Under the pieces are notes generated by a model that searched no databases, was not told the DNA's origin, and saw only the letters and a program-made list of their open reading frames with translations. From sequence record FN394986.1: a stretch of 2,827 bases of DNA; one strand, 5' to 3'. This DNA comes from Enterobacteria phage CUS-3. The position numbers and the translations under genes are program-made. Below are positions 539 to 2,827 of this stretch, in pieces; the first letter of the stretch is position 1, and every line of letters starts with the position of its first letter.

Positions 539-1762
539 TCTGAGCCATGTGTAAAATATTATGATGGCATTCTGTATCTGACGACCAGGGGGACATTAAG
601 TACTCAACCCGGTAGTTCATTGCACAGAAGCTCTGATTTAGGTACATCATGGAATTCTCTTCGCTTCCCAAATAATGTTCATCACTCAAACCTTCCTTTT
701 GCCAAAGTTGGCGATGAGCTGATTATTTTTGGCAGTGAGCGCGCATTTGGTGAGTGGGAAGGAGGAGAACCTGATAACCGTTATGCAGGAAACTATCCAA
801 GAACATTTATGACCAGAGTTAACGTCAATGAGTGGAGTCTGGATAATGTAGAGTGGGTTAATGTTACTGATCAGATTTATCAGGGCGGAATAGTTAACTC
901 TGCGGTTGGTGTTGGTTCAGTTTGTATCAAAGACAACTGGCTGTACTACATTTTCGGTGGGGAAGACTTTCTAAACCCATGGAGCATAGGGGATAACAAC
1001 AGAAAATATCCTTATGTTCACGATGGTCACNNNNNNNNNNNNNNNNNNNNNNNNNNNNNNNNNNNNNNNNNNNNNNNNNNNNNNNNNNNNNNNNNNNNNN
1101 NNNNNNNNNNNNNNNNNNNNNNNNNNNNNNNNNNNNNNNNNNNNNNNNNNNNNNNNNNNNNNNNNNNNNNNNNNNNNNNNNNNNNNNNNNNNNNNNNNNN
1201 NNNNNNNNNNNNNNNNNNNNNNNNNNNNNNNNNNNNNNNNNNNNNNNNNNNNNNNNNNNNNNNNNNNNNNNNNNNNNNNNNNNNNNNNNNNNNNNNNNNN
1301 NNNNNNNNNNNNNNNNNNNNNAGCGGCGGTGAAACAACGTCTTCAGCAGATGGTGCAATGATAACGTTGCATGGTTCCAGAAGCAGTACTCCACGTCGCG
1401 CGGTATATAACGCACTCGAACATCTTTTTGAGAACGGAGATGTTAAACCTTATCTTGATAATGTAAATGCTCTTGGTGGTCCGGGAAACAGGTTCTCGAT
1501 AGTTTATCTTGGCTCCAATCCTGTGGTTACCAGTGACGGAACATTAAAGACAGAGCCGGTCTCTCCTGACGAAACATTGCTGGATGCCTGGGGTGACGTC
1601 AGGTATATCGCTTATAAATGGCTGAACGCTGTCGCTATAAAGGGGGAAGAAGGGGCGAGGATACATCATGGTGTAATCGCGCAGCAACTTCGTGATGTTC
1701 TTATTTCTCACGGACTCATGGAAGAAGAAAGCACAACATGCCGCTATGCCTTTCTTTGCTAT
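539..1762 (+). CDS. Endosialidase-type tailspike (endo-N-acetylneuraminidase), internal and C-terminal fragment; 5' end absent, 3' end lost in N-run
   Basis: Frame 2 open across 539-1030 and 1322-1762 with no stop; the same frame on both sides of the 291-nt N-run. Translation 542-1030 begins EPCVKYYDGILYLTTRGT and contains a sialidase Asp-box SSDLGTSW. Translation 1322-1762 contains a peptidase-S74 chaperone domain. Not in the ORF track because frame 2 lacks a stop. Adjacent to a NeuO-like gene, as in CUS-3-type K1 prophages. Confidence 0.75.
629..652 (+). other. Sialidase Asp-box motif (S-x-D-x-G-x-T/S-W) within tailspike
   Basis: Codons AGC TCT GAT TTA GGT ACA TCA TGG encode SSDLGTSW, matching the bacterial/phage sialidase beta-propeller Asp-box consensus with Ser in place of Thr. 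Confidence 0.6.
1031..1321. other. N-run, 291 nt (97 codons), inside tailspike ORF with reading frame preserved
   Basis: Counted directly. Length is a multiple of 3 and frame 2 is coding on both sides, so this looks like a length-preserving mask or sized gap rather than an arbitrary join. Confidence 0.9.
1532..1762 (+). other. C-terminal intramolecular chaperone domain (peptidase S74) of tailspike, with predicted autoproteolytic Ser|Asp site at 1532-1537
   Basis: Translation VVTSDGTLKTEP...VRYIAYKWLNAVAIKGEEGARIHHGVIAQQLRDVL. Ser (1532-1534), Asp (1535-1537) and Lys at +5 (1547-1549) match the catalytic Ser-Lys dyad spacing of the endosialidase/tail-fibre chaperone domain. The R-x-H-x-G-V-I-A-Q block is characteristic of this family. 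Domain is cut off by the N-run at 1763. Confidence 0.75.
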
Positions 1763-2179
1763 NNNNNNNNNNNNNNNNNNNNNNNNNNNNNNNNNNNNNN
1801 NNNNNNNNNNNNNNNNNNNNNNNNNNNNNNNNNNNNNNNNNNNNNNNNNNNNNNNNNNNNNNNNNNNNNNNNNNNNNNNNNNNNNNNNNNNNNNNNNNNN
1901 NNNNNNNNNNNNNNNNNNNNNNNNNNNNNNNNNNNNNNNNNNNNNNNNNNNNNNNNNNNNNNNNNNNNNNNNNNNNNNNNNNNNNNNNNNNNNNNNNNNN
2001 NNNNNNNNNNNNNNNNNNNNNNNNNNNNNNNNNNNNNNNNNNNNNNNNNNNNNNNNNNNNNNNNNNNNNNNNNNNNNNNNNNNNNNNNNNNNNNNNNNNN
2101 NNNNNNNNNNNNNNNNNNNNNNNNNNNNNNNNNNNNNNNNNNNNNNNNNNNNNNNNNNNNNNNNNNNNNNNNNNNNNNN
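1763..2179. other. N-run, 417 nt; must hide the tailspike 3' end, the intergenic/promoter region and the 5' end of the acetyltransferase gene
   Basis: Counted directly. The chaperone domain is incomplete at 1762, and the acetyltransferase is already coding at 2180. Confidence 0.9.
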
Positions 2180-2827
2180 ATGTTGTTTTCCGTTGATGAT
2201 AATGGGTCAGGTAATGTTTTTGTATGTGGAGATCTTGTAAATAGCAAAGAGAATAAAGTTCAGTTCAATGGAAACAATAACAAACTTATTATAGAAGATG
2301 ATGTTGAGTGTCGATGGCTTACCGTAATATTTAGGGGTGATAATAATTACGTAAGAATACATAAAAACAGTAAGATTAAAGGTGATATTGTCGCAACAAA
2401 AGGTTCAAAAGTTATTATCGGTAGAAGAACGACAATAGGTGCAGGTTTTGAAGTCGTCACTGATAAGTGCAATGTTACAATTGGCCATGACTGCATGATA
2501 GCAAGAGATGTTATTTTGCGTGCATCAGATGGGCATCCTATATTTGATATTCATAGCAAAAAAAGGATTAATTGGGCAAAAGATATCATTATATCTAGTT
2601 ACGTATGGGTAGGGAGAAATGTCTCTATAATGAAAGGAGTATCTGTTGGAAGCGGATCTGTCATTGGGTATGGGAGTATTGTAACTAAAGATGTGCCATC
2701 TATGTGTGCAGCAGCCGGTAATCCAGCAAAAATAATAAAAAGAAATATAATATGGGCAAGAACGGATAAAGCGGAGCTAATTAGTGATGACAAGAGATGC
2801 TCCAGCTATCATGCGAAGCTCACGCAA
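2180..2827 (+). CDS. neuO: Polysialic acid O-acetyltransferase, NeuO-like (hexapeptide-repeat / left-handed beta-helix acyltransferase); 3' end beyond window, true 5' end possibly within upstream Ns
   Basis: ATG at 2180-2182 immediately after the Ns; frame 2 open for 216 codons to the window end with no stop. Hexapeptide repeats are visible: IGRRTTIGAGFEVVTDKCNVTIGHDCMIARDVIL and VWVGRNVSIMKGVSVGSGSVIGYGSIV. About 36% GC, lower than the phage genes. His at codon 119 and Trp at codon 143 (counting from this ATG) match my recollection of the reported NeuO catalytic residues. Sits directly downstream of an endosialidase tailspike, as in prophage CUS-3. Confidence 0.8.
   Translation, partial: MLFSVDDNGSGNVFVCGDLVNSKENKVQFNGNNNKLIIEDDVECRWLTVIFRGDNNYVRIHKNSKIKGDIVATKGSKVIIGRRTTIGAGFEVVTDKCNVTIGHDCMIARDVILRASDGHPIFDIHSKKRINWAKDIIISSYVWVGRNVSIMKGVSVGSGSVIGYGSIVTKDVPSMCAAAGNPAKIIKRNIIWARTDKAELISDDKRCSSYHAKLTQ

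Follow-up and report, generated by a model that had tools for sequence, protein, structure and literature searches.

Simple-sequence contingency loci, such as the intragenic repeats in surface genes of Haemophilus and Neisseria, vary by slipped-strand mispairing, and the tract of 7-nt units in neuO changes its copy number by the same process. Natural neuO alleles resemble such loci in that the copy number differs between genomes and sets the reading frame. They stand apart from the others in the 7-nt unit and in the translation of unit triplets into heptads that raise activity, neither of which is visible in the window analyzed here (the window being the whole stretch of 2827 bases). When in frame, triplets of units encode RLKTQDS heptads, which increase catalytic efficiency (PMC3046976). 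The same paper gives the number of copies as 2-93 (citing Deszo 2005 and Mordhorst 2009) and, for natural isolates, as 3-93 (citing Mordhorst 2009), and a survey of 64 complete genomes recorded 3-53 repeats, with 65.6% out of frame (PMC13001214). A protein without heptads, NeuO+0, has been treated as an engineered construct (PMC3046976). The neuO gene is a known one, its phase variation through AAGACTC units has been on record since 2005, and the window adds nothing to this; its oddity, a neuO start that lacks the tract, is a database artefact.

The window consists of four readable pieces, one from the terminase gene, two from siaK1 and one from neuO (2,019 readable bases in all), and three N-runs, located at 439-538 (100 N), 1031-1321 (291 N) and 1763-2179 (417 N). 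Megablast matched it to 17 phage entries in GenBank (FN394218.1 and FN394987.1-FN395002.1), each 2827 bases long with neuO at 2180-2827 and each with a different E. coli K1 strain behind it. Their titles read 'Enterobacteria phage CUS-3 partial proviral terminase gene, siaK1 gene and neuO gene, genotype GT_n', the genotypes being GT_1 and GT_3 to GT_18. These records share with the window the length, the four pieces, the three N-runs and the zero-repeat start of neuO; FN394218.1 (GT_1) differs from it only at base 572 (C in the window, T in FN394218.1), where the window agrees with the complete CUS-3 genome of strain RS218 (CP000711). The window is therefore a typing record of prophage CUS-3 in GenBank, a composite that belongs to the series GT_1 to GT_18. 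Its own genotype is probably GT_2, the only label of the series without an entry in the phage collection searched. Judging by the strain names and genotype labels, the study of Mordhorst et al. in 2009 is the probable source of the FN accessions.

The reverse complement of CP000711 (L002) served as the reference. Every readable piece of siaK1 and neuO in the window was an exact substring of CP000711 (100% identity). The siaK1 pieces correspond to L002 1222-1713 and 2005-2445 and the terminase piece to CP000711 22268-22705, and window 2185-2827 corresponds to L002 3001-3643, which starts right after a 19-copy tract at L002 2868-3000. In CP000711, neuO lies directly downstream of siaK1, the gene for the endosialidase tailspike, near int and attL in a P22-like prophage; the order siaK1-neuO is kept in the window, with a spacing that matches CP000711. 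The second siaK1 fragment (1322-1762, plus strand), which is annotated as siaK1 in FN394218.1, matched Pfam End_tail_spike and Peptidase_S74 and covers the end of the catalytic domain of the tailspike and the start of its C-terminal chaperone domain. This C-terminal part of the endosialidase (window 1322-1762) was also found, at 99.3% identity, beyond CUS-3 prophages in the phages vB_EcoP_ZX5 (39.6 kb) and vB_EcoP-720R6, in keeping with the modular way in which K1 tailspikes are known to be exchanged.

Two of the N-runs have exactly the length of the reference sequence that they replace. The 291 N equal the bases skipped at L002 1714-2004, and the 417 N equal L002 2446-2862, from the last sequenced siaK1 base to the ATG of neuO. 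Unlike these two, the 100-N run is not sized to the reference and is a conventional gap of unknown length. It joins a terminase small-subunit fragment to siaK1, and the two lie ~17 kb apart in CP000711 (22268-22705 versus 2526-5471).

Four of the genotype records (GT_1, GT_7, GT_12 and GT_18; FN394218.1, FN394991.1, FN394996.1 and FN395002.1) were read directly. They derive from different strains and differ in flanking SNPs, and their N-run coordinates are identical to those of the window. Because the coordinates agree in all five copies read, the N-runs are spacers rather than assembly failures; they represent a fixed template of the depositors, with no later masking step. Tandem repeats generally break short-read assemblies, and it had been hinted in the earlier note on this DNA that the repeats caused the gap at 1763-2179. 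Collapse or failure of an assembly at the tract was nevertheless rejected and has next to no probability: by their labels ('partial ... genotype GT_n') the records are concatenates made for typing, the gap has the size of a reference distance rather than an arbitrary size at a repeat, and the tract site itself lies outside the N-run.

Starting at 2180, the reading frame of neuO runs without a stop through 216 codons and reaches the last base of the window (2180-2827, plus strand), and this deposited coding sequence, formally a NeuO+0, is 100% identical to CP000711 over 2185-2827. In CP000711 a TAA directly follows the base matching window 2827, which puts the neuO stop just past the end of the window. 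Residues 3-216 of the translated protein equal residues 31-244 of the polysialic acid O-acetyltransferase structure 3JQY in PDB (E = 3.4e-142). The offset of 28 residues corresponds to the four RLKTQDS heptads of the crystallised construct, which sit between NeuO residues 2 and 3. The protein also matched Pfam Hexapep PF00132 (42.5 bits; cut-off 27), and its next-best relatives in PDB were OatWY and galactoside and maltose O-acetyltransferases. By these sequence matches, NeuO is a hexapeptide-repeat (left-handed beta-helix) O-acetyltransferase, an enzyme that modifies the K1 polysialic acid capsule, and its identity to a characterised enzyme (3JQY; PMC3046976) argues for O-acetylation of alpha-2,8 polysialic acid. 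The window shares with the neuO of CUS-3 (Deszo 2005 and King et al. 2007, as cited in PMC3046976) the identity to CP000711, the ATGTT head, the identity to 3JQY outside the heptads and the siaK1 neighbour. It also resembles the engineered NeuO+0 (Bergfeld et al. 2007, as used in PMC3046976) in that, without the VNTR, the protein begins directly at the left-handed beta-helix body. That protein is a laboratory expression construct whereas the window is a database sequence, and the likeness is one of layout.

In the window, TTGTTTTCCGTT comes directly after the ATG at 2180. The 5' end of neuO in CP000711 reads AGGATACTAAT ATG TT (AAGACTC)x19 GTTTTCCGTTGATGAT; the tract, annotated as 'poly(psi) domain; contains 19 copies', comes directly after ATGTT and is followed by GTTTTCCGTT. 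The same ATGTT, comprising the start codon and TT, stands at 2180-2184 (plus strand) of the window and abuts GTTTTCC (GTTTTCCGTTGATGAT) from 2185, the first base after the tract in CP000711. The insertion site for (AAGACTC)n is thus intact at 2184-2185 (plus strand) and holds zero copies. AAGACTC and its reverse complement had zero occurrences in the 2,019 readable bases, and no tandem short repeat was present in the readable coding region of the window. It should be noted that only about 0.25 occurrences of one 7-mer on both strands of 2 kb would be expected by chance (by arithmetic), and its absence alone is unremarkable; the telling point is that neuO, a gene in which a tract is normally present, lacks it here. 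A direct count thereby bore out three statements of the earlier note (Ns at 1763-2179, an ATG at 2180 and no readable AAGACTC), and its assignment of the gene to neuO, with an AAGACTC tract expected at the 5' end, agrees with the 19 copies in CP000711 and with the identity to 3JQY.

The earlier note had further proposed that the tract and the true start are hidden in the masked bases, which would make the ATG at 2180 an internal codon. Apart from the fact that the bases there are unreadable, nothing speaks for this arrangement. ATGTT at 2180-2184 is exactly what precedes the tract in the reference, the N-run matches the corresponding distance there to the base, and the depositors annotated the coding sequence as 5'-complete at 2180 (FN394218.1). 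The position of the heptads in 3JQY, between residues 2 and 3, likewise places the tract behind this ATG. Moreover, the 417 reference bases (L002 2446-2862) contain no AAGACTC on either strand, and they hold the siaK1 stop and, 7 nt ahead of the ATG, an AGGA. The absence of AAGACTC together with an ordinary ribosome-binding site in front of the ATG at 2180, which the note itself had named as evidence against a hidden tract, is therefore what the reference CP000711 displays. A tract inside the N-run was rejected and has a vanishingly small probability. The ATG at 2180 is the true neuO start, with the tract site between 2184 and 2185 in readable sequence, outside the N-run.

Sequences from other sources gave a similar picture of the junction. 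In nine IMG/VR contigs the tract is preceded by ATGTT or ATGTC, the latter followed by 8-12 copies. GT_7, GT_12 and GT_18 have zero AAGACTC and the junction ATGT(T/C)-GTTTTCC, and the alignment coordinates of all 17 FN records fit a zero-copy junction. Because the T/C polymorphism also precedes the tract in IMG/VR contigs, ATGTT and ATGTC are genuine pre-tract sequence and not primer-derived. The polymorphic position is window 2184 (neuO base 5); natural ATGTT yields TTA (Leu) as codon 2 and natural ATGTC yields TCA (Ser), and the tract-less records have TTG or TCG at this codon.

The likely content of the 417-N placeholder (1763-2179), which stands for unsequenced DNA between two amplicons, was obtained by projecting CP000711 onto the window coordinates (offset 683), and the features named here are those of the reference, not bases of the source strain. 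By this projection, the last 264 bases of siaK1 would occupy 1763-2026 (plus strand), with TAA at 2024-2026, and the siaK1-neuO intergenic region of 153 bases would occupy 2027-2179 (plus strand). In projected coordinates, the AGGA Shine-Dalgarno sequence of the reference lies at 2169-2172, and two sigma-70-like sites, which are consensus matches only, lie at ~2092-2120 and ~2135-2163. A consensus scan of the reference for regulatory features in the masked intergenic region found nothing beyond these promoter-like sites. Binding of DsdC has been reported mainly within and downstream of neuO, with a modest peak at the promoter (PMC9659370), a pattern that has no bearing on the missing tract. 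As judged by length and projected content, the 417-N run is a ruler-length placeholder without a repeat tract.

To characterize natural alleles, a synthetic zero-repeat query was built by joining the 205 bases upstream and the 200 bases downstream of the tract. Matches were found in 176 of 5,426 complete E. coli genomes, and the best 60 rows, after removal of UTI89 duplicates, represented 57 distinct genomes. In these best 57 of the 176 matching genomes the flanks were 100% identical but split by inserts of 35-371 bases (5-53 copies), and the inserts were whole multiples of 7 in all but one of the 57. An acyl/acetyltransferase coding sequence was annotated exactly when the insert was a multiple of 21 bases (57/57 concordant; 19 such genomes), and a simulation with n copies after ATGTT kept the frame only at n = 0, 3, 6 and so on. 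This agrees with the repeat survey mentioned above (PMC13001214), and the rule quoted in the earlier note, that neuO is in frame only at multiples of three units, holds. A copy number that varies and sets the frame, as in a slipped-strand contingency locus, was thus observed in related genomes and not in the window. In addition, the junction from tract to GTTTTCC was present in 11 IMG/VR viral contigs with perfect runs of 3-32 copies.

The single exception among the 57 genomes was E. coli UM146 (NC_017632.1, 1042495-1043038), where 139 bases, a length not divisible by 7, separate the neuO flanks. This amounts to a tract of ~20 copies that is one base short, within the tract or next to it, owing to either a true frameshift or an error in sequencing. 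E. coli ExPEC XM (NZ_CP025328.1) and a few others had up to three neuO-flank matches per genome; some strains may thus harbour two or more CUS-3-like prophages or neuO copies.

Compared with these natural CUS-3 alleles, which have 2-93 copies according to PMC3046976 or 5-53 copies in the 57 genomes, the window has zero. Among 5,426 complete E. coli genomes, none gave a spanning match to the zero-repeat junction in either its ATGTT or its ATGTC form, and the exact ATGTT form had 0 matches in IMG/VR, in GTDB genomes (one per species) and in JGI metagenomes, with probes that require near-exact matches and that a divergent zero-repeat allele could escape. The contiguous junction ATGTTGTTTTCC was accordingly not found as a natural sequence in the 5,426 E. 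coli genomes or the three contig collections. As a positive control, the ATGTT probe detected the FN records, and the natural tract-to-GTTTTCC pattern was recovered from viral contigs.

These results bear on the possibility that the source strain truly carries a neuO without AAGACTC, that is, a natural NeuO+0 that would be locked on, unable to phase-vary and lowest in catalytic efficiency. The record as written does lack every copy while its 216-codon frame is intact, a heptad-free NeuO is active (PMC3046976), and loss of repeats by slippage or deletion is conceivable, with copy numbers down to 2-5 on record. However, the same zero-copy junction occurs in all four records read, despite their different strains and flanking SNPs, and 17 coordinate sets agree with it. 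An insert of 35-371 bases was present in 57 of 57 best-matching complete genomes, the junction was absent from the E. coli genomes and from the viral, genome and metagenome collections, and the published range in PMC3046976 starts at 2 or 3 copies. A natural zero-repeat allele is therefore very improbable. Since none was found among the genomes searched, zero copies in every genotype are not credible as a natural state, and the tract was almost certainly omitted from the deposits. The earlier note had also named a zero-repeat allele as an option, and this is literally what the record shows; as a description of the strain it most probably does not hold, since the depositors most likely omitted the tract and the zero would then set this neuO apart from natural alleles on paper only.

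The explanation that best accounts for the whole record, to which we assign a probability of roughly 0.93, is that of a typing composite in which N is a placeholder and the tract was omitted between 2184 and 2185. Four sequenced pieces of CUS-3 are joined by N-runs, with 1763-2179 standing in for the end of siaK1 and the intergenic region that would contain the neuO promoter and ribosome-binding site. The tract would have been left out by the depositors, probably in order to align all genotypes at one fixed length, and its omission would have created a reading frame that is formally a zero-repeat 'NeuO+0'. The living strain almost certainly does have the tract, and neuO there would be switched by slipped-strand mispairing, on at values of n divisible by 3 and off at all others. 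The identity of the record, the meaning of the N-runs, the place of the tract, the frame rule and the lack of natural zero-repeat junctions in the sequences searched are shown directly; a deliberate omission and a tract in the source strain are inferred. The tract copy number of the source strain is not recoverable from the record.

Such composite typing records are of some consequence for the use of databases, in which N-runs can be rulers and hypervariable tracts can be silently dropped. A 'zero-repeat, always-on' neuO read from a typing record would be a false inference on the phase state of the strain. Copy number is not recorded in FN394218 and FN394987-FN395002, and caution is needed when neuO on/off states are mined from these entries. 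A natural NeuO+0, if true, would mean that wild strains can dispense with the contingency switch.

Two of the viral contigs carry unusual tracts. In IMGVR_UViG_3300007747_000060 (minus strand, ~983), 13 copies run straight into ...GTAGGA without the 12 bases TACTAATATGTT, among them the start codon; the allele is either dead or an artefact of assembly. In IMGVR_UViG_2537562173_000011 (minus strand, ~4207), the tract has 15 units, some of which are the variants AAGCCTC and AAGTCTC; they recur regularly, in the order of three perfect units, a variant, a perfect unit and a variant, and such variant units would be expected to dampen slippage.
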